From an uncultured delta proteobacterium (GTDB taxonomy: Bacteria; Myxococcota_A; Polyangia; Polyangiales; Polyangiaceae): a stretch of DNA of 64,000 nt. Both the position numbers and the translations under genes were made by a program. Below, one piece after another: positions 26,712 through 47,552 of this stretch. The DNA is taken from the NCBI GenBank assembly GCA_963696385.1, contig CAVOKF010000002.1:32001-96000 (forward strand). The letters run 5' to 3'. How positions within the stretch are numbered: the stretch's first letter is position 1; the number at the start of each line of letters is the position of its first letter. The notes under the pieces were generated by a model that ran no database searches, was not told where the DNA came from, and saw nothing but the letters and a program-made list of their open reading frames with translations.

Positions 26712-27347
26712 ATGCTGACGGCAGCTTGGGATGTGGGACGCCTCATCGAGCTGCGATTCTCCGGAAGCCCGACCCTCGAGGACGTCGCGCAGTTCGAGCG
26801 CGACTCGCACGCGTGCGTGGTGTCCTGCGTCGCACGGACCAAACAGCCCGTGGTCGTATGCACCGACATTCGGGCGACGCAGTTGTTCCGACCCGCGGTG
26901 ACAGACCGACTGATTCAAACGATGCGGGGGAACAATCGGATGGTGGAACGAAACGGCATGCTCGGCAACGGCAGCGCGCTGATGGCGCTGCAGATCGTCA
27001 GGCTCACCAACGAGGCGGCGGGCGACCATCGAAGACGCATTTTCGAGGAATTGGAACCGCTGCTCGATTGGCTCGCTGCGTCGTTGACGGCCGAAGAGCA
27101 GGCCGGAGTGCGCCATTTCTTGGCTGGGCACGAGATGAGCGGGACGGGACAGGAAACAACTACGACAGTCGCGACGGGCAGGGATAGGCGCACGCCGCGC
27201 CCGTTCCCCCACTCCCGAAGTCGTCTCTTCCCAGACTCGAGGCCGCAAGGGAACGCGCCGAGCATGGCGATCGAGCTCAAGGTGGATGTCGGCCGCCTTT
27301 CGCGGGGACTTCGGAAACGAGCCAAAATCGGCCCACGGTTCGAGTGA
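26712..27347 (+). CDS. Hypothetical STAS/SpoIIAA-like myxobacterial protein
   Basis: VGRLIELRF...VVCTDIR...LQIVRL...RRIFEE...LDWL pattern. Confidence 0.5.
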   Translation: MLTAAWDVGRLIELRFSGSPTLEDVAQFERDSHACVVSCVARTKQPVVVCTDIRATQLFRPAVTDRLIQTMRGNNRMVERNGMLGNGSALMALQIVRLTNEAAGDHRRRIFEELEPLLDWLAASLTAEEQAGVRHFLAGHEMSGTGQETTTTVATGRDRRTPRPFPHSRSRLFPDSRPQGNAPSMAIELKVDVGRLSRGLRKRAKIGPRFE

Positions 27348-27416
27348 AAACGAACGCCCCAAAGGGATTCTACGTTAACTCACCGTCTCGCTGGCCTCTT
27401 CGTCGACCGGCAGGCG
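27322..27416 (-). repeat. dif-like repeat copy G
   Basis: aacgccccaaa-gggatt-ctacgttaact (27353-27380) followed by ctcttcgtcgaccggcaggc. Confidence 0.7.
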
Positions 27417-27451
27417 TGCATCCGACGCACGGTCAGCGTCCAGCCCACGGT

Positions 27452-29260
27452 CTACCGAAGGCCCGGAAGGACCTGCGTACCCTCAATCTGGACGGCCGTC
27501 AGAGCGGCCGGGTTGAGCCCCAGGAGGGCGAGGATCGTCGGTGCGACCTGGGTAGTCTCGACGGAGGTGGACTCGACCCGAACCGGTATGCCCGGGCCGC
27601 TGACAACCATCAGGACGTGTGTGTCGCCCGTGTTCATACCACCGTGCTCGGCGAGCTTGGTCGGCCCCGAGTAAACGATGCCCACCTGGACCTTGCCGAA
27701 GACGTCCGGGTAGTGGCCATTGTCAACCGGGACGCCGAAGAAGTTGGCGGCCTCAGCGCCGACCCAGATCTGCGCGAGGCCCGAATGCTGGACGGTGACG
27801 GGGTTCTTGTTGATGTCGAAACCCGCAGCGGTGTGGTTCCACAGATAGCTCTTGACGAAGTCGCAAGCGGCCTGCGAGTTGTCCGACAGGTAGGACTGCC
27901 ACAGGTCGTCGTCGGTTCCGGCAACGATCAGGCTCGTGTTGCTCGGGTGCGTCTCCGCCCAGGCGGCGTTGATCGCGCTGATGATCGGGCCGTCCTTGAC
28001 GGTGCGGAGCTGGTTCGGATCCAGCGGCGACTGGCCGTGCTTGGCCGTGACGATGATCGTCGTCGAGCCCGCGAGGCCGTCCTTGTCGATCGTAGAAACC
28101 ATGCGGCCAAGTTGAGCGTCGACGTAGTCGAGCGCGCTCGAGAGGACGGGGCCGGGAACGAGCTGACCGTTGACGAACTGGTACCCACCTGCCTCCGGAG
28201 CGCTGGTGGTGAAATTTCCGTTCGCGTCCGGACCGATCAACGTCGTCGGAGTCGAGGGGATCTTCTCCGCGACCGAGACGGTCTGGAAGTTCATGCCGAA
28301 GATCGCCGGGGTGCCGACGTGGGTCTTGCCCGAGTGGTCGAGACCGTCGATCTCATTCAGGATGGCCTGGACCTTGTAGCCGTCGTACTGCTTGGTGGCG
28401 GCGTCGATGTGCGCCCAGTCGTTGTCCTGCGGGTAAGGGACACCGTTCGGCATGACAGCCTGCGAGTCGATCTCCGGCGAGAAGAGGTCGTCAATGCTCT
28501 CGCCGTTCGAGCCCGGACCATTGAACGACGCGTAGATCTCGTGCTTGTCAGACCAAGCGGTGCGCAGGCCGGCGTTGTGGATGACCTGGAAGATCGTGTT
28601 GTCGCCGAGGTAGTCCCACGGAGTGATCGGCTCGCAGGTCTTCGGGTCCACTGGGAACGTGCCCGGGTTGAGCGACGTCTTCGGGTCGAACTTCAGGTTC
28701 ATGATCGCGGCCGGGTTGGTGTCAAGGCCGTTGGCGAAGATCGAACCGTCCTCGTCGAACGACGGGAAGGTGCCGTTCGCGGGATTGATGAAGTCGAGAA
28801 CATTCGCCAGCGCGTCATCCGGCGAGTCATAGATGACGTCACCACCGGTGGCCGGCTGGCCCGGGGTGCAGGCAGCGCCCCCCTCGTCGACCTCGTGGCT
28901 GTACTCAACGTCGTAGTAGACGCCCGTCGATTTGGGGTTACCGCCGGTCATCAGCGCGGTGCCACCCGGGTCGGAGTCCGACGGGTTGGAGGTCGCCGCA
29001 TTGGTGTACTCGCTGCCAGAGTGAACCAACTTGGCAAGCGTCGAGTTTGGGTGGTTGGCGACGTACCAGTCAAGGTCACTCTGGTGCATGCCATCGATCG
29101 AAATCAGCAGCACGTGCTGGTGGCGGTGGCCCTGGTCCTGGCAGTCAGCCGCGATCGCCTGCGTCGAGGTGCCCGTGATTTCTTCGCCGGCGCCGGCGTT
29201 CGAGCTGCAGGCCCCGACGAGGCAAAGCGACAGCAGCGGCAGAGTAGTTCGAATGCGCAT
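27452..29260 (-). CDS. Alkaline-phosphatase-superfamily (type I phosphodiesterase) lipoprotein
   Basis: Lipobox LVGAC; HVLLISIDGMH, TAKHGQSP, AEHGG, QVAPTIL. Confidence 0.88.
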   Translation of the reverse strand: MRIRTTLPLLSLCLVGACSSNAGAGEEITGTSTQAIAADCQDQGHRHQHVLLISIDGMHQSDLDWYVANHPNSTLAKLVHSGSEYTNAATSNPSDSDPGGTALMTGGNPKSTGVYYDVEYSHEVDEGGAACTPGQPATGGDVIYDSPDDALANVLDFINPANGTFPSFDEDGSIFANGLDTNPAAIMNLKFDPKTSLNPGTFPVDPKTCEPITPWDYLGDNTIFQVIHNAGLRTAWSDKHEIYASFNGPGSNGESIDDLFSPEIDSQAVMPNGVPYPQDNDWAHIDAATKQYDGYKVQAILNEIDGLDHSGKTHVGTPAIFGMNFQTVSVAEKIPSTPTTLIGPDANGNFTTSAPEAGGYQFVNGQLVPGPVLSSALDYVDAQLGRMVSTIDKDGLAGSTTIIVTAKHGQSPLDPNQLRTVKDGPIISAINAAWAETHPSNTSLIVAGTDDDLWQSYLSDNSQAACDFVKSYLWNHTAAGFDINKNPVTVQHSGLAQIWVGAEAANFFGVPVDNGHYPDVFGKVQVGIVYSGPTKLAEHGGMNTGDTHVLMVVSGPGIPVRVESTSVETTQVAPTILALLGLNPAALTAVQIEGTQVLPGLR

Positions 29261-29734
29261 CGGTGATCTCCTTCTTGCATCATGTGTGCGGTGCCCTCGC
29301 GCTTTGTAGTCGGCTCTGTGTGACGACGATGTGCCGATGCAGCAAAAACAAGAGGGCCAGATCGGCGTGCAATTGTCACCGAAAGGCGGTTTTCGTGGAC
29401 CACGCGGCAGTTCGTGCTCGACAGCGACCCGAATGACGAAACCCTTGCGCAGCTCGGGGGCGCGCCTCACCGTCGTCACCCCCTTGGTTTCTCCGACCTT
29501 GCGCGGGCCGCCGCTTCTACTGCGAGGGACTGGGCTTCGAGTTCGACGGATGGTTCGTCGTCGTCGAGGGCTCGTACACGGCGACGCTCAACGGCAAGGA
29601 AGTCCGAGTCGGGGCCCGGCAGAAATGCTCCATCCCCAAGGGCACCCGAATCGCAGGCCGAGTCACCGCCGGGACGAGGATGGTTCACGCGTTCGGTGAC
29701 CGAAGAGCGGAGCGTAGATGAACCGCGCCGGGCC

Positions 29735-30100
29735 TAAGCCTAAGGCATCCCGAACGAGCCACACAGGCGAAGAGCACGACGACCAACGAGGCGAGCAGCG
29801 TCGCACGACCGAGCGAGCTTGCGAGCCGCCGAGCGCCGGCTCGCGTCGAGAGCACGTCATGTGCCGCCTTTAGCGCCACGACGACAACGACGGCGGATGG
29901 CTTGTAGGCGAGGGTCCGTCCGAAGTCCGATGCCCAGAAGGCTGCCACACCCAACATCGACAGGCTAATCCCGCGCATCGCGAGGTTGATGGCGCCGGTT
30001 GCGAGGAGCAGACCGATGCAAATCCAACCGAGCGTCCGGAACCGCAGACCCATCTTCTGGCCGCTCTGGCGCTTTGGGCGATTTCCCAGTCCCGCTCGGT
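29735..30100 (-). pseudogene. CopD/DUF4149-like membrane protein fragment
   Basis: GLRFRTLGWICIGLLLATG.N...FGRTLAYK...HD. Confidence 0.5.
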
Positions 30101-30245
30101 TCCAAGCACGAACGCCACTTCGAGCGGCGAGGGCGCGAGTCGCGCACGGGCGGAAAAAATCACGCAGGGGCATCGAAGTCCGTTCCTGCGCTGGTTGCGC
30201 TGGTCCGATCGCGGTCAAACGACCACGGCTGAGGGATGGGATGCC

Positions 30246-30354
30246 AAATTGGCGCGGTTGCACGGACCACGAACGCCCCAAAGGCGTTATATGTGACCGC
30301 GGAGGTTTCCGCGGCTCTTCGTCGACCGATACCCTTTCGCCCGGCTACTCGCTC
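30246..30354 (-). repeat. dif-like repeat copy A
   Basis: aacgccccaaa-ggcgtt-atatgtgaccg (30272-30299) plus accessory segment ending ctactcgctc. Confidence 0.85.
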
Positions 30355-31088
30355 GACGCTGAGTCCTGGCGGCACAAAGAGGCCCAGCAGCGCTCTCGGT
30401 CCAAAAGAAACCTACGGACGACGACGCCTGACGGCGTCCGGATGCGCCCCGCGGTCGGCGACCGCCTCTCCGCGGGGCGTCCTTGAATTCGAAAGTTCCG
30501 TCACTCGGGAAGGCTTACCTTAAAGCAATCCCAGATGCCATTGTGGACATCGTACTCGCAAGAGCCTGAGGAGCAGTCGCTATCGTTTACACATACGTCG
30601 CACGCCGTGTGGCAGTAGTTCGCGGCCTGGCCGCACGCGTCGCCGTCCACGGACCGCCGTCAGAGCTCTCCCAGCATCCTACGGACGGAGGAGGAGCCGG
30701 AGGAGTCGCTGTGCTCGTCGTGCCAGGCGCCGGGAGGCCCGCATCGGCGCGCAGCGCGAAGCTGTCGCAACCGGCGCCGCCGCTCGGCGAGCACCATCCA
30801 CCTGGCCCGCAATCGGAGTCGACGGTGCAGTTGCCGCCCGCATAGCAGAGGTTCGGCGCGGAGGTCGATGTTGAGGGGCGACAGACGCAAGGTCCGACGT
30901 GACAGTAACGACTCCGCCTTTGCTGACTTGAGCGACGATGCGGTGCGGCTGCATGTGCCACACAACGACACCGCCGATCGTGCGGAGGAGCGACGGCAGC
31001 GTAAGCCCCATCGGTCCTCAAGCCGTAGCGCTCAGCAACTCGCTCGATTGCCTTTGCGGCCCGCCCCGTTGGGGCACCCTGGCGCCCC

Positions 31089-31473
31089 ATGGTCCTCGAG
31101 GTCACCGGGCTCGAGAAGCGCCTACGAGGGCATCGTCGCGGTCGCCGGGGTGAGCTTCTCCGTCGCGGCCGGGGAGATCCCGGGTCTGGTCGGACCCAAC
31201 GGCGCCGGCAAGACGACGACGCTCCGCTGCCTCGGGGGCATCCTCCGGCCGAGCGCGGGGACCGTAAAGGTGGCTGGCAGGGACATCGTCGCCGATCCGG
31301 TGGGCGCCAAGCAGCACCTCGCGTTTCTGCCCGACGAGCCGCGCCTCTTCGAGTATCTGTCCGTCCGCGAACACCTGAACCTCGTCGCCCGCCTGTACCG
31401 CGTCGCCGGCTGGGAGGCGAAGGCGGACGCGCTGCTCTCCGAGCTCGAGCTCGCCGACAAGCGGGACGATTGA
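31089..31473 (+). pseudogene. ABC transporter ATP-binding protein N-terminal fragment
   Basis: GLVGPNGAGKTT; truncated before the signature motif. Confidence 0.75.
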
Positions 31474-31518
31474 GCAACTGCGCCGATACGCCTCGACGCT
31501 CATCGCACGCCTCACGGA

Positions 31519-31557
31519 CGCAGTCGCACAATCGCCTATTATTTAGTTAGGTTAAAT
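31519..31557 (+). repeat. dif-like half-site H abutting the IS4 end
   Basis: cgcagtcgcacaatcgcctatt is the reverse complement of 43401-43422 (1 mismatch); followed by ttaggttaaat. Confidence 0.6.
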
Positions 31558-32854
31558 TAAGAGTCTTCGATCAGCCCATCCGACTTCAACTTGGTCAGCA
31601 TCGGCTCCATGTCGCTCCACTCGAACCGAGACCCGTCGTCGCGCCATCCGAGGCAATCGCCAGCGACGAACTCCCTCTCGGCGAGCAATCGCTGCACGAA
31701 CGGGATCGCCTCGCCGACCAATTCGACGGCGTGACTCGTCCCCACCGCAAGACACCCAGCGACGCTTCCGCGAAGTGTGCGAGCGAGCGTTTCAGAAGGG
31801 CTGCGAGCAAGCTCGCCCATATCATCGCTTTCGCGATAGCGGCCTTGCCCGTATCGAAGGCATGAAGGTTGGCGTGGGATTTGAACTCTTTGAACAGGAG
31901 TTCCACCTGCCAGCGGAGGCGATACAAGCCGGCCACGTCGGCGGCGGAGAAGCGCTTGCGAGCGAGGTTGCTGTGCAGGTACACGAACGTCTTCGCGTTG
32001 CGCTTGCCGCGCTTGTAGATCGCCACAATTCGCCCGCGATACACGAATGAATTCGCCTGCCATTCGATGTCGAGATCGACCGTGTGGGCCGGAAGCAGGT
32101 CCCAGTTCAACTTCTGGCCGAGCAACTTGGGGATGGATTTGCCGGCGCTGTCGAAAGCGGCCCGAATGGTGGGTCGAATGTTTTTGGTTCCGCGGACGAT
32201 GAAGGCGCCGCCCGCTTGGTCGACGTCGAAAAAGAATTTTCGCTCCTCGTACCCTCGGTCGGCCAGAAAGAGCCGCTCGCGAAGACTCGCGGCCTCGGGA
32301 CGGTAGGTTCGCTCGGTCTCCTTGTCGGCCGTCAGGGCGACGATGCGCACATCGTCTTGGAGCAGACTCATCGTGACGTGCAGTTCCACGGCGGCAGGCG
32401 AGATTTTTGTAAAGCGGCCCGGCCATGTGCCTTTCAAGTCGTCCTTGAGCGCGAACGACGTCCCGTCGTGAATGACGATGTCCCGAAAGGTCGACAGTTT
32501 GGGGGACACGGCGTGCAGAACCGGCTGGCTCATCTTCTGTACCGTCGCTTCCAGCAGCATCCGAAACATCTCTGGAAAGGACGCTTGCGCGAGCCGGTTG
32601 TGAAAGGGCTTATATCGCAGCGAAAGGCCCGCGAATTTCCGGAACGTCCGCAGAATATCGGCCAACCACTTGGCGTGGCCCGACCCGAGCGTGGACAGCA
32701 CCGCCACGACCATCGCCAGCGGCATCACCTTGCGCACTCGCCGTAGCCAGCCGCTACGTCTCGCGATCGCGGTCACCTGCTCCTCGCCGAGTACTTCCGT
32801 AAGCCGTTTCGCATACACGCCGACTCCGGCGCGTGTCCTGTTTGATCCGTGCAT
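31557..32854 (-). mobile_element. IS4-family transposase with frameshift near the 3' end
   Basis: IHDGTSF, LADRGY and LYRLRWQVELLFKEFK (Y-R-E-K motif). Confidence 0.88.
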
Positions 32855-32981
32855 CGGGGGTCTCCTTTCGCGTTGTCTCACAACAGCGTCTAGAGAATCC
32901 CCGATGCCTTTGACTATCCAATTCGTGCACTATGCACGTAAGTGATCGAGATCACTCGGGAAATAAAGATCCTACCTATGT

Positions 32982-33506
32982 ATGCGGCTTCGCGAACACC
33001 TGCAACCTCACTTCCTTCGCAACACGCTGAACGCCATCGCCGCCTTGATCGACGAGGAGCCTTCGGAGGCACGCGATCTACTCGCTGCTGTGGCCGATCT
33101 TCTGACGGACTCCATTGAGGACTCGGCTCCGCAGCGGCCGCTCGGCATCGAGTTAGCATGGTTACGTTACCGAGGATCGCTACACGTCGCTTGGGACGAA
33201 GAACCGATGACCTCGGCGACCCTGGTCCCGCGCCTTCTACTGCAGCGGCTCGTGGAGAACGCCGTGCACCACGGTGCACTCGCCAGACGGACCGATGGAT
33301 GCGTGACGGTCCGCACGCGCGCCCGGCGCGGCGGCGGGGCCATCGTCGAGGTCGAGGACAACGGTCCGGTTATCTCCCCAAGTGGTTCGAGCGCCATCGG
33401 GCTGGGTCTACGGCTCGTCCGGCAGCGTGTCGATCTGGAGTCTCACGGCTCGTTTCGCCTGGAGTCGACTCCGAACGGCACACGAGCCATCGTGGAGTTG
33501 CCGTGA
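32982..33506 (+). pseudogene. LytS-type histidine kinase C-terminal fragment
   Basis: LQPHFLRNTLNAI, LVENAVHHG, VEDNG, GLGL. N-terminus is absent at the IS4 boundary. Confidence 0.8.
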
Positions 33507-34285
33507 CACCGCTGCGCGTGTTGGTTGTCGACGACGAAATAGCCCGCCCGAAACTATCTGGTGCGATTGCTGCAACAGACTGGGCGCGCGGACGTCGTGG
33601 CCGCCGTCTCGACGGTCGAGGAGGCGCAGCAGGCGCTGGCGCCGGAGGCCGGCGCATCGGTCGACGCAGCATTTGTAGACGTGCGACTACGCTGTCCCGA
33701 GCGTGACGACGCGGGTCTAGCCTGGATCCGGAGCTTGGTCTCCACCACAGAGCCGCCGCTCTTCGTGCTTGCGACGGCCCACAAGAAGCACCCCGTCGAG
33801 GCCTTCGATCTCGGCGCGTCGACTTTTTACTCAAGCCGTTCACCTCGGCGCGCGTGCTGGCGTGCATGGATCGACTGACGGATCGGCGCCGTCCCGCACC
33901 GCGGATAGCACGGATACCCCAGCGCATCGCGGCGCGTCACGAGCACGTGATCGTCTTTGTCGACCTCGCAGAAGTCTGGGCGTGCGAAGCCGCCGAGAGG
34001 CTGACGTTCGTTCATTCAGCTCGAGGTCGCTTCGATCTTGACCTGACGCTATCGGCTATGCCCATGTCGCTCGGGCGCGGCTTGCTGCGCGTGCACGGCA
34101 ACTGGCTTGTGAATCCGTTGCGTGTCCTGGAGCTCGAGCGGGAGGCGGGCGAGACCACGTTGCTGGTGGGGTGCACGGAAGATGGTCGGACCGTCGGCGT
34201 GCGAGTGCCCGTCGCAAAGGACCGCGCCGCTGCCGTGCGCGATGCGCTGCCGTCGGTTGCGCCGGGTGTGCGACACTCCACTTGA
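33503..34285 (+). pseudogene. LytTR-family response regulator, frameshifted
   Basis: LRVLVVDDE, FVDVRL, VLATAH..VEAF, LRVHGNWLVN across three frames. Confidence 0.8.
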
Positions 34286-34386
34286 CCGTCAGAAGCCCCC
34301 TCCGAAGGGGAAGACCCACGTGCGGTCGTGGGACGAAAAGGGCAGGTAGTCGGATCAACCGCCGGGCTCACACGTGAGCATCCGAT

Positions 34387-35560
34387 TCACGGATCTCCCA
34401 CCAAGCCTGGCACCGGGATCGGCACGGCGCTGTAGGCTGCTTCACCCAACGACTCGCATTGGGCGGCGCCCCAGCAGACGACCCCGCCGCCATCCGCGAT
34501 GGCACACGCGGACGCCGCGCCCACGGAGACGGCGATCGCAGCGCTGCCCAGGTCGGGCACGGTAACCGGGGGATACGTCGGAACAACGCCGTCGCGTGTG
34601 TCATTGCCCCACGATTCGACGCTCCCCGCCCTCAACGCACAGGCGGACTGGGTGCCCACCGACACCGCCGTGACTCCGCTCGCCAGTCCGGACACGGCTT
34701 GCGGAATCGTGGCCGTAGCGCCCCCGATGTTTTGCATGAGAGCACCCCAGCATTCGATCTGCCCGCCGGTCGTGAGAGCGCAGGCGGACTGCTGTCCAAC
34801 GGAGATGGCCTCCACGCCGCTCTCAAGTCCCGTGACGGGGACCGGTGCCGCACTCGCCGCCGTCGAGTCGTTGCCGAGCTGACCGAAGTCGTTGCCGCCC
34901 CAGCACTCCACCCCGCCGCCGGCAGTCACGGCACAGGCCGAGTCGAACCCCACCGATACCGACGTCACGCCGCTCGGCAGACCGGCGACGGGCGACGGGG
35001 TCGCGAGATACGAATAGCCGCCAAGCTGAACGCCCCAGCACTCGACTTCGCCGCTGGCCGTCAATCCGCACGCAGACCCATCTCCGACCGACACGGCGAT
35101 GACCGCTCCGCTGAATCCAGCGATCGTCATCGTCAGCGCCGACGAGCCTCCGTCGCTCGCGGCCACGATGTCGCCCCAGCATTCCACTTCGCCGCTCGCG
35201 CTGGCGGCGCACGCCGAGTTGGTTCCGACGGAGAGCGAGAATCGGAGAGCTCGACAGGCCGCCGATGGGCACCGGAACCGCGCTCGAGACCAGCGAATCG
35301 TTCCCGAGCACCCCGTTCTGGTTGCACCCCCAGCACACGACCGCGCCTGCCGCCGTAAGAGCGCACGCGGCCGATGCTCCGATGGAGACCGCCACCGCCG
35401 TCAGCGGCTCCACGTGCTCTCCGGGTTCACGCTGGGCGCCCTTTTCGACCGGACCGTCGCCGATCACGCCGGAATCGTTCCCGCCAAGCTCGGCGCCGCG
35501 ATCGCTGCATGCAGGGAACGCCACGACAACCAAGACCCGCCAGCGCCAAGACAAGGCAGG
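34387..35560 (-). pseudogene. RCC1-repeat secreted protein, frameshifted
   Basis: Repeated SVG...ACA....G.V.CWG.N..GQLG. Confidence 0.8.
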
Positions 35561-35599
35561 CGGGCGCGCCCGACGGCGTCGCGCGCACGCCTCAAGCGA

Positions 35600-35762
35600 G
35601 CGGAACCGCGCTACGACGCGAAGCTGCTCCTCGAACTGTCGAACGGCCTGACTTACCGACGAGGCGGACACGTTGAGCTCGCGCGCCGCGGCGCTGAAGC
35701 TCCGCCTCGCGACGGCAAGGAATACGTGAAGCTGCGGCAGCAGGCTCGGGCTCAGCGGCATG
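35600..35762 (-). pseudogene. LysR regulator HTH fragment
   Basis: LHVFLAVARRSFSAAARELNVSASSVSQAVRQFEEQL. Confidence 0.75.
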
Positions 35763-35914
35763 ATTGTGAAGCATACCTTCAAGGCGCATTGCGATCGTGC
35801 GCGTAGCGAGAACGACGAACAGGTCGTACTTTCTGGGTCGGAGGCGAGAGGAGACATGACCAAGATCGAAGGAAAGGTCGTCGTCACGGCGCCAGCAGTG
35901 GGGTTGGCGTGTCA

Positions 35915-36900: not shown

Positions 36901-37057
36901 GCACGTGCGATGCGGCTCCGCCGCCCTCTCGAGCGACACGTCGCATGCGTTGGAACCGTTGGCGTAGTCGGTCCACACCGTAGCCGTCGAGCAACTCGCG
37001 CCAGAGGCGTTGGACCCGCGAGGACCGTGGACGTTGGGAGCTTGGAGGCGGCGAACC

Positions 37058-37170
37058 GAGCGAATAGTCGCTCCAAAGCGTATCGGCCAACGAAGAGACC
37101 GGGAAACCGCCGCAGTCACATAAGATCCCTTTGGGGCGCTCGTTCTCACTGAAACAGCGGACCGATTTGG
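37058..37170 (+). repeat. dif-like repeat copy B
   Basis: gagcgaatag...cgaagag...cagtcacataa-gatccc-tttggggcgct; ungapped 84-bp match to copy A. Confidence 0.85.
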
Positions 37171-37399
37171 TCCGGGCGGACGACTCGCGCGGTACGGTCG
37201 ACGGGTGCTTGACGTCGTGCTGGCGGTGACCTGCGTCATCGCCATCGTCCATTCGGCAAGGCAGCGGTTCGTATTCGGGATCGCGTGCGCAATGGCGATC
37301 GTCTACGGACTCGTCGCGTCGGCGTTTTGCGTAATGACCGCTGTCCGGCGCGGAGTGGTCGGCGCGGAGTACGCGTTCGGCCTTCTTTTCCTCGAGATG

Positions 37400-38352: not shown

Positions 38353-38489
38353 CCCAGGTCAAACCCCGAGTACGTGGCGCACCCTCGCCATCGCCCGCCA
38401 GAATCTCGGAGGCTCGTCCGTGACCGACTTCAGAACCGCGGAACATGGGCTTTTTTGCCGCGTTTGCCGCGTTTCTGTTCGCGATCCAG

Positions 38490-38600
38490 GAGCGAGTAGG
38501 CGGCGCAAAGCTTGTCGGCCGACGAAGAGACGCGGAAACCGTCGCGGCCACATAAAAATCGCCTTTGGGGCGTTCAAAGCGCCGTCCCAATTGAGCAACG
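38490..38600 (+). repeat. dif-like repeat copy C (8-bp spacer)
   Basis: gagcgagtag...cgacgaagag...cggccacataa-aaatcgcc-tttggggcgtt. Confidence 0.85.
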
Positions 38601-39006: not shown

Positions 39007-40665
39007 TCAGGGGGTCCGCGCGCACCGGAAGCCCTTGTAGGTATCCGCGTTGAGCGGGGGGGCCCCTTGAAATTCGTGAGGGGAGCAGCCAACCCACCAG
39101 TCGCAACCCTGGACGCTTCGACTGTACTGCTCGGGCGGCGCGGGGACCAACCCCAGATACGCGCAATCGCGGCCCGGACAAGGGTACGACGAGGGAAATA
39201 CGTCCAGGGTCCACTCCAGTTCCTCTCCGACCATGTCGAGTTGACCCCAGTAGGCGGCACCCTGTAGCGCGGTTCCCACCGGCGCAACGGAGCACGAACC
39301 GACGGACCACCCCTCACTGCAGTCGAAGTCACACTGGCCGATCTGACCGCAACCGAGGTTGAACTCGCCGCAGGAGCTGGGACCGCAGGCCCTGAAGTTA
39401 GGCACACACCCACTCCCGGCGGTCGGCGCCGGAACGGGCTCGGGATAGTCGCAATCGACAATCGCGTACTCGGGACTCCATACCGCAGTCAGTTCGTTTC
39501 CGGCATCATAAGCGTCCGGACCTGTCGAGCCCCAAGGGTATTCGCGCTCCTGGCTGCCGCCCACGGCGGCGTAGTCCCATTCCGCTGCGCTCGGCAAAAA
39601 CCCGCCATCCCAAATGCAGAACGCATACGCCTGGTACCAGGTGATGCCGGTGGCCGGTAGGTTTTCCGGACTGCCCGCCGTGATCGGCCAAGTGGCACTC
39701 ACGAGCGAGCTCCAAGAAACCCCAACCGGCGCCAGTAGCGCGTTCCAGTCGGTCGCGTCCCAGCCGGTCTCGTACACCGGTTGCTGAGATTGGGTCACGG
39801 CGCTCGCATTGACCAATCCGAGACCCCCATTCACGTGCGTGTGCTTGCCGCTGCCGTTCGCAGGCGGAGCGCCGGAGGCGCCAGCGACGTAGTTCACGTA
39901 CTGCCGGAACCGGCCCGCCGTAACGAGATACTTGTCCAGACGAAAACCACTCACCGTGACCGGGGGGCCCTCCACGAGCGCTCCCGCGTCGGTGACGGTC
40001 GGGTTACTGTTCGCTGGAGCGGGCGCAGCGGACGCGGCGGCAACGCGGTAGTACGTCCCGCCCGGGACTTCCAGGCTCGTGCAGCAGCTTTCGGTTCCGC
40101 TGCCGCCCGGACCGCAATTGGTCATGCCGGGCCCACCGGGGGCGCAACTCGGGGCGACGGTCGTCGAGCCAACGCAGGCGCCATCGACGCAGTCCCCCGT
40201 GAAGCACGTCCATACATTCCCCCATCCGCCGTCGGGGCCGCAGGTCTCGACGGCGTTGCCCACGCACTGCGTGGCCATCGGTGTGCAGACCGCCGACTCT
40301 TCGGTCGCGGCGTCCGCGGTTGGGGCGTCCGCGGTTGGGGCGTCCGCGGTTGGGGCGTCCGCGGTTGGGGCGTCCGCGGTTGGGGCGTCCGCGGTTGCGG
40401 CGTCCGCGGTTGGGGCGTCCGCGGTTGCGGCGTCCGCGCTTCCGGCGTCGGCAGTTGTGGCGTCCGCACTTCCGGTCGATCCCCAAGCACTCGAGAAACC
40501 GCTGGAGCTCGGGCTGCCGATCGATCCGCTTGAGGCGGGCGCGCTTGCGCCGGAGCGGCTGGGGGCCAGCGCCGAATCCGACGGCCCCAACGTGGGCTCT
40601 TCAGCGACTAGACCGCAACCGAAAAGCACGAGGGCGACCGCGCCCGAAACGCAAACTCGGCCCAT
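39007..40665 (-). CDS. FGE-sulfatase/SUMF1 (C-type-lectin-fold) lipoprotein
   Basis: Lipobox LFGC; FRLDKYLVT, AFCIWDGGFLPSAAEW, YPWG, GFRCAR. Confidence 0.88.
   Translation of the reverse strand: MGRVCVSGAVALVLFGCGLVAEEPTLGPSDSALAPSRSGASAPASSGSIGSPSSSGFSSAWGSTGSADATTADAGSADAATADAPTADAATADAPTADAPTADAPTADAPTADAPTADAATEESAVCTPMATQCVGNAVETCGPDGGWGNVWTCFTGDCVDGACVGSTTVAPSCAPGGPGMTNCGPGGSGTESCCTSLEVPGGTYYRVAAASAAPAPANSNPTVTDAGALVEGPPVTVSGFRLDKYLVTAGRFRQYVNYVAGASGAPPANGSGKHTHVNGGLGLVNASAVTQSQQPVYETGWDATDWNALLAPVGVSWSSLVSATWPITAGSPENLPATGITWYQAYAFCIWDGGFLPSAAEWDYAAVGGSQEREYPWGSTGPDAYDAGNELTAVWSPEYAIVDCDYPEPVPAPTAGSGCVPNFRACGPSSCGEFNLGCGQIGQCDFDCSEGWSVGSCSVAPVGTALQGAAYWGQLDMVGEELEWTLDVFPSSYPCPGRDCAYLGLVPAPPEQYSRSVQGCDWWVGCSPHEFQGAPPLNADTYKGFRCARTP
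40306..40470. repeat. 15-bp coding tandem repeat (ADAPT/ADAAT linker)
   Basis: gcgtccgcggttggg repeated about 8 times plus degenerate copies. Confidence 0.92.
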
Positions 40666-40754
40666 CTTCGGCAGTGGCGGCAGACCCGGATAACGGCGCG
40701 CCCAATCGTTCCTCGACTTGATTACTTACCCAGACCTCTATGTAGGTCGTGTCG

Positions 40755-41496: not shown

Positions 41497-41644
41497 TCCC
41501 CTGCCGAGCACTATCCCGTGAGTGGAGAGCGAGCGCAAGGACGGGCGCGAGGTTCGGCTCGAGAGCCGATCGCTACTCGTCGCTCGTCTTCAGGTTGCCT
41601 CCTTCTCCCGGATTAACCCATGCCATCGCGCTCGGAATCCCCGC

Positions 41645-41994
41645 TCAAGCCCTCAGCACGGCTTGCACTCTTGCTCTCTCTCCCACCAGAATCTCGAACG
41701 CTCGGCCGAGACCGACCTCGGCCGCAACCGCCTTGAGCAGGGACTCGACGGACCCGGCGCTCACGCCACTCTTCGCCACAGCGTGCGCGACCGGTGCCTT
41801 GACGGGTGCGGCTGCCTTCGCCGCCGCCTTGCTCGCGGCCGCTTTGGCGGCTCCGCGAACGTCGTAGACGTAGGTGTCCGTGAGGGCGATGCCGGCCGCT
41901 TTGGCCTTGGCGACCACGCCTTTGGCGGACAACCGGGGATCCGCGGAACGTACAAAGTCGGCTTTGGTCTGCTTGGGGGCTGTTTGGCTGTCAT
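41645..41994 (-). CDS. Small Lys/Ala-rich basic protein, putative DNA-binding; 5' frameshift
   Basis: TKADFVRS..LSAKGVVAKAKAAGIALTDTYVYDVR..LLKAVAAEVGLGRA; GAGGAG upstream of ATG 41994. Confidence 0.55.
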
Positions 41995-42008
41995 GTTCAA
42001 TCTCCTCG

Positions 42009-42131
42009 GAGCGAGTAGGCGTCGCAAAGCCTGCCGGTCGACGAAGAGCCGCGGAAGCCGCCGCGGAAACATATCGCGTCTTAATCGCGTCTTAGGAGCG
42101 TCCGTTGTCGCTGAAGCGGCGAAAGATTTGG
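42009..42131 (+). repeat. dif-like repeat copy D with internal 11-bp duplication
   Basis: gagcgagtag...cgacgaagag...cggaaacat, then atcgcgtctta twice (42073-42094), then ggagcgtcc. Confidence 0.8.
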
Positions 42132-42452
42132 CGCTCGCGGGTGATCGAACAGGCCCACGCGCGGCTCGGGGTCGCCCGCGAGTCCGCGCGACCTTCATCG
42201 GTCATCGCAGACTATCGGCCCGAAACGTCCGACCGGCCGCGCGCCCTTCGCTTGTGCGCAGTCGCCGCAATAGGATCCGGCTGTCGCGGTGCGCCCGGAC
42301 GGAGCTCAACTCGACCGCGCGACTTGCTGTGGCATAGGCCTTGCTGTCATGCGGGAGCATGGAAGCAGCCGGGGGTTGTTCGAGGCGGCTGCGCGTCCAC
42401 GAGGCGGACGGCGAGCGCCCTCTCCCCGCCCTGAATCTCTCTGCCGCTCGCG

Positions 42453-42974
42453 TTGCTGTTTCTCGGGGCCGGCGCCTGCGGCCCCCCGTGTGGTGACCAG
42501 CCGGCGTGCAAGTTCGTCAATCTGCTGACGGAGTGCTTGTCGGCGCCGGACTGTCCTGTGAGCGGCGCCGGAGTGAAGGTGTTGCCGGGCGCGAACCCTC
42601 CCGACGCTGGGGCTCTTCAGACTATGGGCTCCAATGTCTCAATGACCCTCGTGAGCATGTTTCAAAATGACTCGATTGAGGTTCCCTTCGCAGAGAGCGC
42701 CGCCACGATTGCGGCGCTGCCGATCCTCGACATTCAGGTCCTGGGGGTGGTCTTCGGGAGCGCCGACCAGGTCTCCGTGCTCATCAACGGTCAGCCCTGG
42801 ATCGGGTGCGAGCCGCAGCACTTCAACGGGACCTCCGAAGAGTGGAAGTGCCCTCTCCCGGCGGGTACCCAGACCCTTGGGCTGCGAACGCAGGCGGCCG
42901 GCTTCGAAGCGGCGACGATCGCCCTGACCGAGGCCACCTGCACCGGCCACCAGTATGTCGTCTGTGGCGATTGA
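42453..42974 (+). CDS. Hypothetical secreted lipoprotein (start uncertain)
   Basis: AGAC lipobox-like motif; Cys-containing ORF with coding-like composition. Confidence 0.5.
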   Translation: MLFLGAGACGPPCGDQPACKFVNLLTECLSAPDCPVSGAGVKVLPGANPPDAGALQTMGSNVSMTLVSMFQNDSIEVPFAESAATIAALPILDIQVLGVVFGSADQVSVLINGQPWIGCEPQHFNGTSEEWKCPLPAGTQTLGLRTQAAGFEAATIALTEATCTGHQYVVCGD

Positions 42975-43133
42975 GGGGGCGCGGGTGCATGGCATCGCGG
43001 TCGCCGTCTCTCTCGCGACCCGCACCCGACGCACATGTTGAAGCGTTCGGGCAGTGCGTCGAGTTCTCTCTCGACCCGATGGTCGAGGGATTCACGCCCT
43101 TCGCCAACTTGGATGGCGGCTACGTCCTTGCTG

Positions 43134-43161
43134 AAATCCGATAAGGCGTTTTACGATGACT
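43134..43161 (+). repeat. dif-like site I (degenerate accessory segment)
   Basis: aaatccgataa-ggcgtt-ttacgatgact; same spacer as copy A. Confidence 0.6.
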
Positions 43162-43331
43162 CGCCGGGCCTTCTTGGCTCGACCCCGTTGCACTCCTTAT
43201 CCGCACGTAAAGCACCTCAGCGGATTTCAACGACGGCAGGACGCGGTCCTGATTTGGCTGCTCGCAACGATAGCCCGAACGTCGCGATCGGAGCTGGCCG
43301 GCTCCACCCTTTCTTAGCTCGATCGTTCGCG

Positions 43332-43422
43332 GCGAGTAGTAAACCCAAAGCACGTCGGTCGACGAAGACCTGCGGGAAGCCACCGCGGTCACATATATGC
43401 AATAGGCGATTCTGCGACTGCG
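43332..43422 (+). repeat. dif-like repeat copy E
   Basis: gcgagtagtaaaccc...cggtcacatat-atgcaa-taggcgattct. Confidence 0.85.
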
Positions 43423-43940
43423 CCGGGTGACGCATGCGAGGAGCGCGGACGGGAGACGGCGCAGTTGCTCAATCGACCGGTTGGACGGAGCCGGTGCGCG
43501 GCAGAGACCGGGCGCTTCCGGAGGCCGTCTTGGCGGGGCCGCTATGGGGAAAGAGGCCGTACGGGTTCGGTCCGCGGCTGCGGGCTGGCTGGTGGCGTTC
43601 GCGTGGGTAGCGCAGGCAGAGGCGGGCGCGCGCGCCGAGGGGGGCCGACCGCGGTCCCAACCGGCGAGAATGGGTCGACCGATCCGCGCGCCGAGTGGGT
43701 ACGCCGTCGCGAGCGCACACGTCGCCCCGGCCGCGCCGAGGGCACAGTTGGGCGTGGTTGCCGACGCTTCGTTGCGGTCACGCGGCCTCCGGCGGCGCGC
43801 GCGCGAGGGCGTGGGGATCGTCGAGGGGCCGACGCACGACGGCGAGTGCGCCGCAGGCGGGGCATCGACGCACGTCGATGCCGGTCAAGTGTCGCAGCAG
43901 CTCTTGCCAGGGCAGCGCGGCATCGGGCGCGCCCAATAGG

Positions 43941-44033
43941 GAGCGAGTAGTAAACCCAAAGCACGTCGGTCGACGAAGAGCTGCGGGAAGCCACCGCGGT
44001 CACATATCGCATCTTATGACGCGTCCGTTGCCA
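43941..44033 (+). repeat. dif-like repeat copy F (3' exon of the group II intron)
   Basis: cggtcacatat-cgcatc-ttatgacgcgt; 64/65 identical to copy E over 43943-44007. Confidence 0.85.
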
Positions 44034-45973
44034 GTCGGGTAGGCCGGGGATGTTGTCTCCCCGGCCCCCCTTCGGATCCGGACGTGCGCAATTCACGCAT
44101 CCGGCTCTTCGGTCACGGGTTCGCTGCGCGCGGGAGAAATGGGTGAGCGATGCGAGGCGGCGGGAGCGGGTAGCGCTCCAGCAGAAGCCGCATTCGCTTC
44201 CAAGGCATATGGCGTCGTTGCGACCGGCGGTTGAGCCACCGGCGCCACAACGCAATAGTCTTGCGGCAGAAGAGCGCGATGGCGCGGAAATTCCCGGTGA
44301 TTCCGTAATATCCGTAGTGACCACGCAGCTTTTGCCCAAGTGCCTTCTGCTGCTCGCGGATGGCGTCGTGCCGGTGCTCCCTGCACCATTGCGCGACCCG
44401 CGACACCGCTCTCCGGAAGCGGTCTTTGGCTGTTTTGCGCATGACAATCCACTTGCCAGAGCGAGCTTTGCCCCAGTAGTGCGTGAAGCCGAGTAGGTCG
44501 AAGCTGCCAGGACCTCGGTCGCCGCCATCGACTTTCGATGAGCGACGGTCAGGGCGCTGAAACTCCACCAACCGCGTCTTCTCGGGATGCAGCGCCAGGC
44601 CGTACGCACCCAATCGCTTCGGCAGCACGTCCAGCACCTTGCGGGCATCCACTTCATGCGAAAACAAAAGCACTGCATCGTCCGCGTAGCGGACGAGCAG
44701 CGCCTTGCCCGAAAGCCTTGGTTTAACTTCGCGCTCAAACCAGACGTCGAGCACCTCGTGCAGGAAAATGTTCGCCAGAATCGGCGAAATCACCCCGCCC
44801 TGCGGTGTGCCCGTTTCCGGATACGCAATGGCTCCGTCTTCGAGCACGCCCGCATTCAACCACTTTCCGATGAGCCGCAGCAGCACTCCGTCGTGCACCC
44901 TGCGGCGTAGGACTTCCCGTAATTTCCCGTGGTCCAGGACGTCGAAGAACTTGCGTACGTCGACCTCGAAAACCCACCCGCCACCCATCATTACCGCTTG
45001 ATTCTGCAGGGTCTCGAGCGCTTGATGCGCCGAGCGCCCCGGCCGGAAGCCGTACGAGCAGTCCAGAAAGTCCTGCTCGTAGACCGCCTCCAGCACCATC
45101 GCGACCGCGCGCTGCAATACCTTATCTTCGAAGCTGGGAATGCCGAGCGGTCTCGTTTCCGAGCCGCTCCCCTTCGGGATATGGACTCGCCGCACCGGCG
45201 GTGCTCGGTACGTACCAGACTTCGCGCGTTCGAGAAGCGACTGCAGGTTGCCCTCCAGGTTTTCCGCATACTCTTGCGCGCTCTGCCCGTCTACGCCACG
45301 AGCCCCGTCCTTGCGTGTGCGTCGGTACGCTTCGCGGAGCCAGTCGGTATCGATGTGATGGGCAAGCGTTCGGAACGCCATATCGGGCGCGTCCTTCGCC
45401 AGCTTTCGAGTTTCGTTGAGATGGGAATTGAGTTCGGCGCCTCGGCCATCGTTCCCTCCAGCGGTTCCGTGTTTTCCGGTGCCGCCCTTTGCTCGGCGGG
45501 GTCCCTTGGGACGGTTCCCCCGCGTCGTCGCTCCTACTGCGGCACTCCGACTTCCCGTCGCCCATCGCGCTTGGCTTCGTTGCCTTCGCCGCGCACTACC
45601 GCCGCAATTCAACAGCCGGAGGCGCCGGGATATCCCAGGTTCCTGGACCGTCCTTTGCGTACATGCCCTGCTGTTCACCCCGGCAGAGTCGACGGGCCAG
45701 GCCTTCGGGCTCGCCCGACTTTTCGGCACGTCGATGTTGCCTTCCGCGTTTCAAAACGCGTCGGCCTCCGCGAAGAGACGGATTTCGAGGCTCTTTGCAC
45801 GGCCTGCACGCCCGCTGTGTACGCTTCGCAGCCGCGATTGCTCGCGAACCACGCAACACTCGCTTCCGGCTGGCGGCCCCGCCTTGGCCGGTCGGGAATT
45901 TCACCCGCGGACGGTTACGTGAGGTTTCCGCTCTTACATGTCTTCCTCCTCACCCAGGCTTCGCCTGGCGCAC
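44034..45973 (-). mobile_element. Group II intron (1940 nt)
   Basis: 5' GTGCG at 45973; domain V GAGCCGGATGCGTGAATTGCGCACGTCCGGATC; domain VI hairpin ending CCCGAC at 44034. Confidence 0.93.
44113..45449 (-). CDS. ltrA: Group II intron reverse transcriptase/maturase without endonuclease domain; 5' frameshift
   Basis: [47 protein letters not shown]. Confidence 0.92.
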
Positions 45974-46591
45974 TTGAAAGTGCCATCCAATTGAGTGAAC
46001 GACGGGACCCGCATGCTTCCCGGCCTTCTCCTGCGGCATTTTGCCTTGGGTGCCGCCTCTCGGGAGGCGCGCAGCAGGCGCAAGCGGCGGGCATCCGCCT
46101 CCCGACGGGAGGCATCTCCATGCCCGGCACCGGAGCCACGCACAGGCATCCCTTTGATGCCGAGCATGGCTTGATGCCGAGCATGGCGAGGAGCCACCCG
46201 TTTGCGGCGGCGAGCACCGTCGAGACAATGCCGGGCACGGAAAAGGCCGTCTCTCCGCCCGGGCGCTGGCCGAAGGGCCAAGCCGTCAGGGTTGGGCACG
46301 CTGAAGAGCGTGCCTCCCGGGCCCCGAAGCCGCCCGCCGACGGCGGGCCTCTCCCCGTTCCCCCCTGAGCAGCGCGCAGCGCGGCTTGCCTCCGGCCCCG
46401 GCGGAGGCCGGGGGAAGGGCGACCGTGCCCTGCGTAGCCGAAGGCGAAGCATGGGAGCCCGCACAGGCGGCGGGCCGCCGAGCACGCGATTGGGGGAACT
46501 CGGCCGCCCGCAGTCGCCCGAAGCTGCCGTGAGGCAGCGTAGGGGGGCGAGGACGGACGCAAGGGGGCACCAGCACGCCTCGGCTCTGCGG

Positions 46592-46620
46592 TTGATTGAT
46601 CGCACGAATAGTATTATGAT
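46592..46620 (+). promoter_or_regulatory. Sigma70-type promoter of the vapBC-like operon
   Basis: TTGATT-17 bp-TATGAT, ending 32 bp before ATG 46653. Confidence 0.65.
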
Positions 46621-46652
46621 TCCAGTAGTTAGGAACAACGCCGAGGACCCCC

Positions 46653-46886
46653 ATGCGCGCCCCTACCCTCAAGCTGCCCGACCCGACGCTCGACCGGAAG
46701 CTGACGGCAATCGCCAAGCGGCGGCACACGACGCGCGCCAAGGCGTTGCGCGAGGCGCTGGACGCGTTGGACAAACAGACGACGAACCCCACCGTCGCAT
46801 CGCTGGCAGACGATCTGATTGGGTCGCTGGAAGGACCGGGCGATCTGCTCTCGAATCCGAAGCACATGGCTGGCTACGGGCGGTGA
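46653..46886 (+). CDS. RHH/CopG-family antitoxin
   Basis: TLKLPD.TLDRKL..IAKRR.TTRAKALREAL; GTGA overlap with the PIN gene. Confidence 0.8.
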   Translation: MRAPTLKLPDPTLDRKLTAIAKRRHTTRAKALREALDALDKQTTNPTVASLADDLIGSLEGPGDLLSNPKHMAGYGR

Positions 46887-47296
46887 CGGCGATCGTCGAT
46901 ACGGGGCCGCTGGTCGCCCTGCTCGACGCGCGTGAGCCGCACCATGCCTGGGCGCGCGAGACGCTCGGCAGGCTGGAGACGCCGATTCAGACCTGCGAGG
47001 CGGTGCTCAGCGAGGCGTGCTTCCTGCTGCGCGGTGTGAAGGGCGGCCGCAACGCAGTACTGTCGCTCGTGAGCCGGGGCATCGTCACACTGGACTTCCA
47101 GCTCGCTCCCGAACTCGAAGCGGTCCGCAAGCTCATGACGAAATACACGAGCGTGCCGATGGCGCTCGCCGACGCGTGCCTCGTGCGCATGAGCGAGCTC
47201 ACGGCGCGCAGCGCCGTCGTGACCGTCGACGGAGACTTTCGCATCTACCGCCGCAACGGGCGGCAGGCCATCCCGGTCGTGATGCCGGAGGACTGA
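46883..47296 (+). CDS. PIN-domain VapC-like toxin
   Basis: IVDTGPLVAL...VLSEACFLL...LADACLV...TVDGDF. Confidence 0.88.
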   Translation: MTAIVDTGPLVALLDAREPHHAWARETLGRLETPIQTCEAVLSEACFLLRGVKGGRNAVLSLVSRGIVTLDFQLAPELEAVRKLMTKYTSVPMALADACLVRMSELTARSAVVTVDGDFRIYRRNGRQAIPVVMPED

Positions 47297-47299
47297 GCG

Positions 47300-47497
47300 C
47301 TATCGGGGAGGCCCCTCATTCCGGGGAAGGACGTCCCCGGCCGTCGCGTCCGCACCAGCCTCGGAGGCCTCGTATTCCTCTTTCAGCAGCCGAAGCCCGG
47401 CCGCGCACACGTCTGCGACGCTGGCGTAATGGCCGGCAGTGACCTCCGCTTCGGCGAAGGCAAGAAGATCATCTGGCAAATGGACTGTAAAGGACAT
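47300..47497 (-). CDS. ParD-like RHH antitoxin, orphan or truncated
   Basis: VHLPDDL.AF....V.AGHYASVADV..AGLRLL. Confidence 0.7.
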   Translation of the reverse strand: MSFTVHLPDDLLAFAEAEVTAGHYASVADVCAAGLRLLKEEYEASEAGADATAGDVLPRNEGPPR

Positions 47498-47536
47498 GGA
47501 CTCGCTCGAACCGTTCCCTCACTCTCTTCCGCTTTG

Positions 47537-47552
47537 GCGAGTAGTAAGCCCA
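47537..47552 (+). repeat. Left end of dif-like repeat (copy J); 5' exon of the second intron
   Basis: gcgagtagtaagccca matches gcgagtagtaaaccca of copies E/F at 15/16. Confidence 0.65.

Follow-up and report, generated by a model that had tools for sequence, protein, structure and literature searches.

Repeats at gene-segment boundaries in a Polyangiaceae genome as probable oriIS end modules of an IS91/ISCR-family rolling-circle transposon

Results

Repeat modules in the window and in the genome

The window analyzed in this study is a stretch of 64,000 nucleotides (nt), positions 32,001 to 96,000 of contig CAVOKF010000002.1 (C2:32001-96000), in the genome of an uncultured Polyangiaceae bacterium (G000; 6.94 Mb, 8 contigs, 65.5% G+C). 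Its part from 27 to 47 kb is packed with gene fragments, pieces of insertion sequences (ISs), and toxin–antitoxin genes, among which lie copies of one repeat that probably represents the oriIS end module of a rolling-circle transposon of the IS91/ISCR family (Table 1). These 20 kb have almost no counterpart in four other congeners except for a phosphodiesterase gene. An earlier note on this DNA had described nine copies of the repeat, A to I, and a stub, J, as dif-like sites at which the host recombinases XerC and XerD accumulate gene cassettes. Repeat finding on the window recovered the family at the positions given there, and the description of the repeats as noncoding boundaries of variable gene segments was borne out. 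When a profile was built from the window copies and run with nhmmer, A to G fitted it on the strands that had been assigned to them, while J is a 17-nt stub, H is the end of an IS, and I gave no profile match even at E<=100, leaving a likeness seen by eye.

Table 1. Repeat copies and neighboring features, in window coordinates (mismatches to dif are counted over the 22 arm positions of the 11-6-11 site, without the 6-nt spacer, unless 28 positions are given)
Feature	Position	Strand	Description
Copy G	27321..27417	-	5'-truncated, without the first ~20 nt; nhmmer E 3.1e-13 (27321-27415), profile positions 30-124
Core of G	27353-27380		5/22 mismatches to probable host dif
Phosphodiesterase/sulfatase-type gene	27452-29479	-	
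Copy A	30238..30357	-	Full module; nhmmer E 1.9e-31
Core of A	30272-30299		AACGCCCCAAA-GGCGTT-ATATGTGACCG; 5/22 mismatches to probable host dif
Gene fragments	30868-34285		ABC ATPase, histidine kinase, LytTR
"H"	31519-31540		Terminal inverted repeat of IS4-like element, not a module copy
IS4-like element	31519..32929	-	DDE_Tnp_1 transposase 31595-32881, PF01609 E 1.5e-17; other element end unmapped
RCC1-repeat gene pieces	34387-35887 and 48314-49453		In several frames
Copy B	37056..37169	+	Full module; nhmmer E 1.3e-30 (match 37056-37173)
Core of B	37113-37140	read on minus strand	Dif-like
Copy C	38487..38600	+	10-nt gap in 3' palindrome, 7-nt "spacer"; nhmmer E 1e-23
FGE-sulfatase-domain open reading frame (ORF)	39007-40665	-	Ten tandem 15-nt units at 40272-40482
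Copy D	42011..42135	+	Full module; nhmmer E 2.8e-32 (match 42005-42135)
"I"	43134..43161	+	Isolated dif-like 28-mer; 10/28 mismatches to a myxobacterial dif
Copy E	43325..43397	+	5' 70 nt only; nhmmer E 3e-17, profile positions 5-76
Copy F	43938..45997	+	nhmmer E 1.7e-23 (43938-44034); module split by group II intron
Group II intron in F	~44027-45975	-	1.95 kb; reverse transcriptase ORF 44113-45729, RVT_1 E 2.4e-34; Rfam RF02005 45669-45901 (127 bits), RF00029 44034-44109
Copy J	47537..47553	+	17-nt stub identical to 5' end of E and F; profile E only 0.15
Second group II intron	47554 on	+	D1-D4 at 47631-47857, RF02005 105.5 bits

A complete copy, hereafter called a module, is ~112–125 bp long and has sharp termini, GCGAGTAG ... 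CCGATTTG, which are fixed as R-G-C|GAGTAG on one side and as GATTTG|R on the other. The flank next to the outer tip reads R-G-C (28+11, 43, and 39 of 45 copies, respectively). The termini GCGAGTAG and GATTTG are mutually unrelated, and therefore there are no terminal inverted repeats, but each module contains two local palindromes with a dif-like 11-6-11 core between them. In the window, the 3' junction of copy B, ...CCGATTTG|GTCCGG, was fixed by a module-free homolog of the flank in the congener G003, and the 5' junction of copy D, ...cctcgga|GCGAGTAG, was fixed in the same way (86% identity). Copy D sits 16 nt upstream of a minus-strand start codon. Copy G is fused to the 3' untranslated region of the phosphodiesterase gene, whose orthologs in the congeners G007 and G008 are 94–95% identical to it as far as window position 27415-27417 and then diverge. 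The 94–95% identity of this gene extends over 1.72 kb in both congeners, and its signal-peptide region and downstream DNA differ among all three genomes.

The earlier note had assigned an 11-6-11 site to every full copy, which holds for A, B, and G, with cores differing from the probable host dif at 5–6 of the 22 arm positions, and less well for C, D, and F. Copy C has a 7-nt spacer and, when read in a 6-nt register, shows 8/22 mismatches, the core of F is also weaker (8/22), and that of D is disrupted by an 11-bp tandem duplication (ATCGCGTCTTA twice) at 42064-42091, which is found in five other copies in the genome as well.

The genome-wide profile scan that the note had suggested gave 87 matches at E<1e-5, far more than expected by chance, 49 of which are full length or nearly so, and the flanks of all copies are unique. 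The copies crowd toward the ends of contigs, over the whole of C2, at either end of C4 and of C7, where C6 starts, and where C1 ends, and the regions where they cluster are rich in mobile elements. Besides G000 itself, only one of 24 congeners searched by BLAST, G003, contains the module. A scan of 185,579 species genomes with an exact pattern found 21 loci, of which 18 belong to a single metagenome-assembled genome (MAG) labeled "Polyangiaceae bacterium". The exact core pattern also occurs at two sites 1.6 kb apart on a single contig of an "Acidobacteriaceae" MAG (L019/L029) and at one site on one contig of a "Rhodanobacteraceae" MAG (L011); these loci may represent mis-binned myxobacterial contigs or transfer.

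The size of ~120 nt, which is like that of chromosomal attC sites, the short local palindromes, and the fact that introns and ISs target the module would also suit a structured noncoding RNA, which the note had named as a possibility that would speak against its own proposal, or an integron attC site. RNAalifold, applied to 40 copies from two genomes, gave two invariant pairs (-0.48 kcal/mol) with zero covariation, and the Rfam scan yielded no family for the repeat, matching only two group II introns. An RNA or attC-type fold is therefore not supported. Moreover, no palindrome spans the full length of the module, and the genes upstream of modules point in the same direction in 18 cases and in the opposite direction in 14, i.e., no orientation rule emerged from a crude GC3-based gene call that is weak in these regions. 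Of 32 tyrosine-recombinase matches, the two Xer-type proteins were scanned with NCBIfam and reached 91–122 bits with the integron integrase model, whose cut-off is 265 bits, although no genome-wide search for intI was made. We regard both of these explanations as highly improbable.

Linkage of the module to an IS91/ISCR-type transposase gene

The G000 genome contains four loci with a Y2_Tnp (PF04986) transposase gene, tnpA, one of them broken, and in all four a module lies 63–68 nt past the tnpA stop codon. Its orientation is the same at each locus, with the GATTTG end facing the gene and the GAGTAG end outermost. Remnants of the interior of this IS also follow another four or five modules. 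The transposases of 567 and 569 amino acids (aa) have Zn_Tnp_IS91 (PF14319) and Y2_Tnp (PF04986) domains; the best NCBIfam match of the 567-aa protein is the model for ISCR clade Ia, with an E-value of 4e-84 and 283 bits, which is below the 925-bit cut-off, and it also matches the NCBIfam IS91 transposase (E 1e-27). The far end of the IS, mapped from four copies, bears a palindrome and varies in its upstream extent. IS91-like tnpA genes are common in the order, being found in at least 102 of 201 genomes (E<=1e-30).

This layout agrees with that published for the IS91/ISCR family. According to two papers, the transposase gene has terIS on its upstream side and oriIS on its downstream side, an oriIS of ~80–100 bp is enough for one-ended transposition, and no target duplication is generated (PMC13181058; PMC13023784). 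In ISCR1, the ~100-bp oriIS downstream of the transposase gene suffices to mobilize adjacent DNA, and the right end finishes in CTTCCTATACCC (PMC13023784). The outer tips of the modules, CTTACTACTCGC in G000 and ATTTCCTATGCGC in G122, a genome of another genus in the same family (3 contigs), resemble by eye this published end: 8 of 12 positions agree between the G000 tip and the ISCR1 22-mer, and TTCCTAT is common to G122 and ISCR1. The link to tnpA, the published layout of oriIS, and the ISCR1-like tip together suggest that the module is an oriIS region. The note had itself mentioned that the repeats might turn out to be ends of a known IS, at the expense of its cassette proposal, and ends of an IS91/ISCR-type element are what they appear to be. 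A profile search for module-like DNA behind distant IS91-like genes returned just one weak match, which was in G122.

A second module family in G122

The tnpA product of G122 is 59% identical to that of G000 and is followed, in the same layout, by a 100-nt module of distinct sequence, GCGCATAGG ... CCAGGGTG, which has at least 41 matches in that genome. These are organized in three arrays whose rows mostly share one orientation (18/22, 15/15, and 5/5). Each array has a tnpA gene at one extreme and extends 17–66 kb from the ori side of the gene. One pair of modules abuts head to tail. A paralogous empty site, cctccgg|CGTACC, served as a reference for one filled 5' junction and one filled 3' junction, and the comparison indicated precise insertion with no target duplication into a site that is not dif-like. 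In G000, only single junctions could be fixed.

Two ideas that arose around these junctions were discarded. Half modules in G122 had raised the possibility that the module is the junction between ter and ori of head-to-tail units, but the halves proved to be modules split by insertions of 1.5–5.7 kb, and their overlap of ~10 nt is the target duplication of the inserted elements. An NRGC target identical to the 3' terminal tetranucleotide did not fit the empty site of G122.

The dif-like core and the host dif

The predicted dif sites of Sorangium, Myxococcus, and Anaeromyxobacter, taken from a published supplement (Kono et al. 2011; PMC3025954), were used as a guide to find the dif site of the host. 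The best candidate in G000 is the single-copy site C3:50569-50596, AAGGCCCCTAA-GGAACA-TTATGTGAACT, which is identical and single-copy in G003 and has three changes in the module-free G007. A relaxed form of the site was found in 15 of 31 congeners (13 of 29 when the unpublished genomes G224 and G010 are omitted), once in 10 of the 15 and with 2–3 matches in the other five, and the form of this genus reads CTAA where most dif sites read ATAA. In G122, the generic pattern has a single perfect match, AATTCGCATAA-GATACA-TTATGTAAACT, which is situated roughly opposite the dnaA-bearing contig. The two sites are the probable host dif sites of G000 and G122. GC skew on C3, which was considered for placing dif, was ambiguous.

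The cores of the modules track these host sites. The G000 modules (n=66) have on average 7.2 mismatches in the 22 arm positions to their own dif, compared with 9.8 to that of G122, 10.0 to that of Escherichia coli, and 10.1 to that of Sorangium, whereas the G122 modules (n=18) have 3.1 to their own dif, 8.1 to that of G000, 7.1 to that of E. coli, and 6.1 to that of Sorangium. Thus ~15/22 arm positions in G000 and 19/22 in G122 match the dif of the same host, and fewer match across hosts. Random windows of G000 (1500 in number) averaged 11.4/22 mismatches to the G000 dif, with 0.2% of them at 6 or fewer, a level reached by 31 of the 66 modules. Five arm positions distinguish the two host dif sites from each other; the G122 module agrees with its own host at all of these, and a G000 module subtype agrees with its own host at four of the five and never with the other. 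The resemblance to dif that had been reported on the basis of the E. coli site stands against the host dif (7.2 versus 11.4 for random windows) but not against that of E. coli, for which the difference is marginal (10.0 mismatches in modules versus 11.7 in random windows and 11.3 in modules after shuffling). When the E. coli dif was used as a yardstick in a genome scan, no site had 8/28 or fewer mismatches and a single unrelated site had 9, and it was replaced by the host dif; the best arms-only match to it, C5:648143, turned out to be a partial module that is not at a skew switch.

Similar sites accompany IS91-like genes elsewhere in the order. Among 24 tnpA loci with at least 150 nt of downstream sequence, eight have a dif-like site downstream (3 or fewer of the 15 specified positions mismatched), six of them on the same strand as tnpA and 81–172 nt past its stop codon, and all 29 upstream stretches taken as controls had more than 4 mismatches. 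Further genomes contain multi-copy dif-like sites beside one best host site, and some of these are followed by a CTACTCGC-type tip. In G127, at C4:2810-29105, ATAAGGGCAATTATGTAAACC occurs four times on one strand within 27 kb, and similar multi-copy, co-oriented sites were observed in G049 and G188, all three genomes being of other genera; multi-copy dif-like sites look widespread in the order. Genomes in which module families of this kind were seen also include G011, G015, G020, and G225. The tracking of the host dif and the sites downstream of tnpA suggest that the dif-like core is an integral, host-matched feature of the oriIS region in this group. No account of a dif-like site in the oriIS of IS91/ISCR elements was found in the literature searched, which lay mostly outside the subscription journals.

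Two Xer genes are present on C3. In NCBIfam, one of them matches XerC best (288 bits) and the other XerD (314 bits), each slightly below its equivalog cut-off, and the second, XerD-type gene passes the PRK00283 subfamily cut-off. The modules are not located at the host dif: the distance to the probable dif is 0.8–1.7 Mb for the G122 arrays and, in G000, ~430 kb for the single full module that its dif-bearing contig, C3, contains. A weak profile match on C3 falls on the dif itself (E 0.12), with none elsewhere.

Seams between the gene segments

Where homologs of the flanks exist elsewhere, the similarity always stops at a module tip, ~35–75 nt from the spacer of the core. For example, a 666-bp segment between two modules of G003 recurs in C1 of G000 at 97% identity, and its boundaries are the module ends. 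Mutual information between variant columns of the module alignment peaks across the core (columns 62–111) and falls on either side. The one informative pair of G000 modules with a shared flank has 400 nt of the left flank in common, and yet the palindrome 5' of the core already differs.

These observations bear directly on the proposal of the note, in which the modules are XerCD sites with accessory arms, and host XerC and XerD excise and integrate the segments; the IS91-like gene would then be a passenger or an element that targets modules. The match of the core to the dif of its own host in two genera, the presence of XerC- and XerD-type genes in G000, the prevailing co-orientation of the G122 modules, between which recombination would release circles with one module, and a few chimeric modules that switch type near the core, e.g., C7:1361145, are all in keeping with it. 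The spacer, where the note had expected synteny to break, is nevertheless not where genome and paralog similarity ends; linkage is strongest across it, and the shared-flank pair differs already 5' of the core. In addition, the G122 module inserted into a site that is not dif-like, the arrays are away from the host dif (at least 0.8 Mb in G122), and a 7-nt spacer or a duplication makes several of the cores degenerate. With the seams at module ends rather than in the spacer, the cassette reading is only partly supported, XerCD as the driver of cassette accumulation is not supported and is in part contradicted, and we consider this reading unlikely as an explanation of the repeats. Public sequencing data (four runs, short contigs) contained no interpretable circle or deletion junction, while module edges in them had many alternative neighbors and fragments of other module variants were also seen.

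Other mobile elements in the modules

Several mobile elements have inserted into modules. An IS110-family element (462 aa; DEDD_Tnp_IS110 and Transposase_20 domains) has a fixed insertion point, ...GGCGAAAGATT^, near the 3' end of the module, as seen at C2:22148-23536 and five similar sites in G000, in a manner resembling that of IS1111 elements that target attC. Two related IS4-like elements (445–446 aa, DDE_Tnp_1) have the core as their exact insertion point, where they generate a target duplication of 10 bp, and a third IS4-like element inserts after CACATAA^. Copy E is cut at its core by an IS4-like end fragment (43397-43422), with an identical junction at four other sites in the genome. 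The inverted pair 31519-31540/43401-43422 is 95% complementary and consists of IS4-like ends, and such end sequence adjoins truncated modules at four other genome sites. The 11-bp duplication in D and five other copies looks like a footprint left by the excision of an IS4-like element.

Two group II introns of the Rfam D1-D4-6 class also sit at fixed points of the module, one in antisense and one in sense orientation. The intron in F has an insertion point that recurs in three other copies, and the last 22 nt of F (TTGAAAGTGCCATCCAATTGAG) resume beyond it at 45976-45997. Copy J is cut short by GTGCG (47554), the 5' end of the second intron, for which Rfam gave no match to domains V–VI and which seems to be truncated; a matching 3' intron–module junction is present at four other genome sites. 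These recurrent junctions indicate that the module is a homing site of the introns.

Some further features were noted around the modules. One of the RCC1-repeat gene pieces in the window is fused in frame to a LysR helix-turn-helix fragment, and the pieces are likely pseudogene debris. The tandem 15-nt units in the FGE-sulfatase-domain ORF form a low-complexity repeat in a probable secreted protein. Clusters of two to three adjoining tyrosine-recombinase genes (406–547 aa), which are possibly elements of the recombinase-in-trio type, are found near module-rich regions at C4:8244-11959, C4:83132-87943, and C3:817480-819585.

Discussion

The repeats described here probably represent the oriIS ends of a rolling-circle transposon of the IS91/ISCR family, mostly as solo modules with no transposase gene alongside. 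In a complete element, the module lies directly behind the transposase gene, and its GCGAGTAG tip forms the outer terminus. In the mechanism that we propose, the HUH-Y2 transposase would act in trans, nicking the outer tip and then moving the module by itself or together with neighboring DNA, in the manner of one-ended transposition. Insertion is precise and without target duplication, and repeated insertion beside resident modules, together with exchange between modules, could then give rise to arrays in which modules form the seams of gene segments. The host XerC and XerD would bind the core, as its likeness to dif suggests, and possibly play a role in resolving or integrating double-stranded products.

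Several observations weigh against this assignment. The window itself contains no IS91/ISCR-type transposase gene. The target tetranucleotide of the IS91 family, GTTC/CTTG, is absent beside the outer tip, where R-G-C is found instead. The solo modules are sharp also at the inner end, which the far end of the IS does not resemble, and this sharpness is not predicted by simple one-ended transposition. No module with both flanks matching a single empty site was found among 19 modules of G122, nor in G000, which means either that flanks have been reshuffled since insertion or that modules travel with adjacent DNA. The orientations of modules are mixed in G000. The dif assignments on which the host matching depends are based on likeness to predicted sites, on single copy, and, in G122, on a place roughly opposite dnaA. 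As for the action of XerCD at the core, no crossover was seen in its spacer.

Other observations of this kind would suit a different view, namely, that the module is an independent miniature repeat, comparable to repetitive extragenic palindromes or miniature inverted-repeat transposable elements, that is moved by some other enzyme and serves as a landing pad, with the IS91-like element inserting beside its GATTTG end at a GTTC-like tetranucleotide. Near-identical IS bodies adjoin different module subtypes, suggesting that the IS may have landed beside pre-existing modules, just as the IS110-family element, two IS4-like elements, and the two introns landed beside or in them at fixed points. 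The IS-linked copies also have GAAC at the inner end (GATTTG-GAAC), which is the reverse complement of GTTC, the usual target of the family next to oriIS. On the other hand, no other candidate transposase is consistently linked to the module, and its tip carries an end motif of the oriIS type, at least by comparison with the published part of the ISCR1 end. Moreover, a tnpA-linked sequence of the same layout occurs in a genus whose tnpA product is 59% identical, dif-like sites follow tnpA across the order, and all three G122 arrays begin at a tnpA gene. An independent miniature repeat therefore seems a distinctly improbable origin for the modules. For the assignment to the IS91/ISCR family, the target tetranucleotide is missing and the sharp inner end of solo copies is unaccounted for.

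One possibility, which we put forward only tentatively, is that the HUH transposase and XerCD together constitute a two-enzyme cassette system: the transposase would cut at modules and release circles composed of one segment and one module, and XerCD would integrate, resolve, or reshuffle them through the dif mimic. Such a system would build integron-like arrays behind a transposase gene in soil myxobacteria. Exchange by XerCD between modules with identical cores may have occurred, as it would leave the sequence of the module unchanged, but the linkage and seam data give no positive support for XerCD action either.

The modules share with IS91, IS801, IS1294, and ISCR1 an HUH-Y2 transposase with a zinc-binding N terminus, an oriIS of ~100 bp downstream of the gene, subterminal palindromes, a similar terminal motif, the lack of inverted terminal repeats and of target duplication, and variable DNA beside the ends. 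They differ from these elements in that solo oriIS modules, fixed at both termini, occur by the dozen and form arrays, with up to 22 rows in one G122 array, in the lack of GTTC/CTTG at the tip, and in the host-matched dif-like site inside the oriIS region. In Pseudomonas syringae, IS801 reportedly has miniature right-end derivatives, short ori-end pieces without a transposase gene that are thought to be moved in trans; unlike those, the modules of G000 have a uniform length, number 87 versus 4 parent ISs, are arrayed, and carry a dif mimic.

A host-tuned dif-like 11-6-11 site is also a property of integrative mobile elements exploiting Xer, such as the CTX phage, and of the pdif modules of Acinetobacter, and CTX-type phages pair a rolling-circle (HUH) initiator with XerCD. 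The modules differ from both in not being at the host dif, in having no alternately inverted pairs, and in having boundaries at the tips instead of the spacer. The arrays of G122 resemble those of integrons in that a single gene for a recombinase or transposase marks the end of the array and co-oriented ~100-nt sites separate unrelated genes, and attC is likewise targeted by IS110-family elements and group II introns. In contrast to integrons, the sites have no attC-type folded palindrome, and an HUH transposase takes the place of the integron integrase at the end of the array.

In practical terms, the modules explain the breakpoints of these assemblies, and at least five other mobile elements use them as landing pads. 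How gene-capturing ISCR/IS91 elements assemble multi-gene regions is poorly understood, and solo oriIS modules that form the seams of arrays bear on that question. The tracking of each host's dif by the core suggests a link between rolling-circle transposition and XerCD that was not described in the literature searched. If XerCD acts at the core, the modules would represent a new route of gene-cassette accretion, and if it does not, they would still define a distinct new subgroup of a known IS family.

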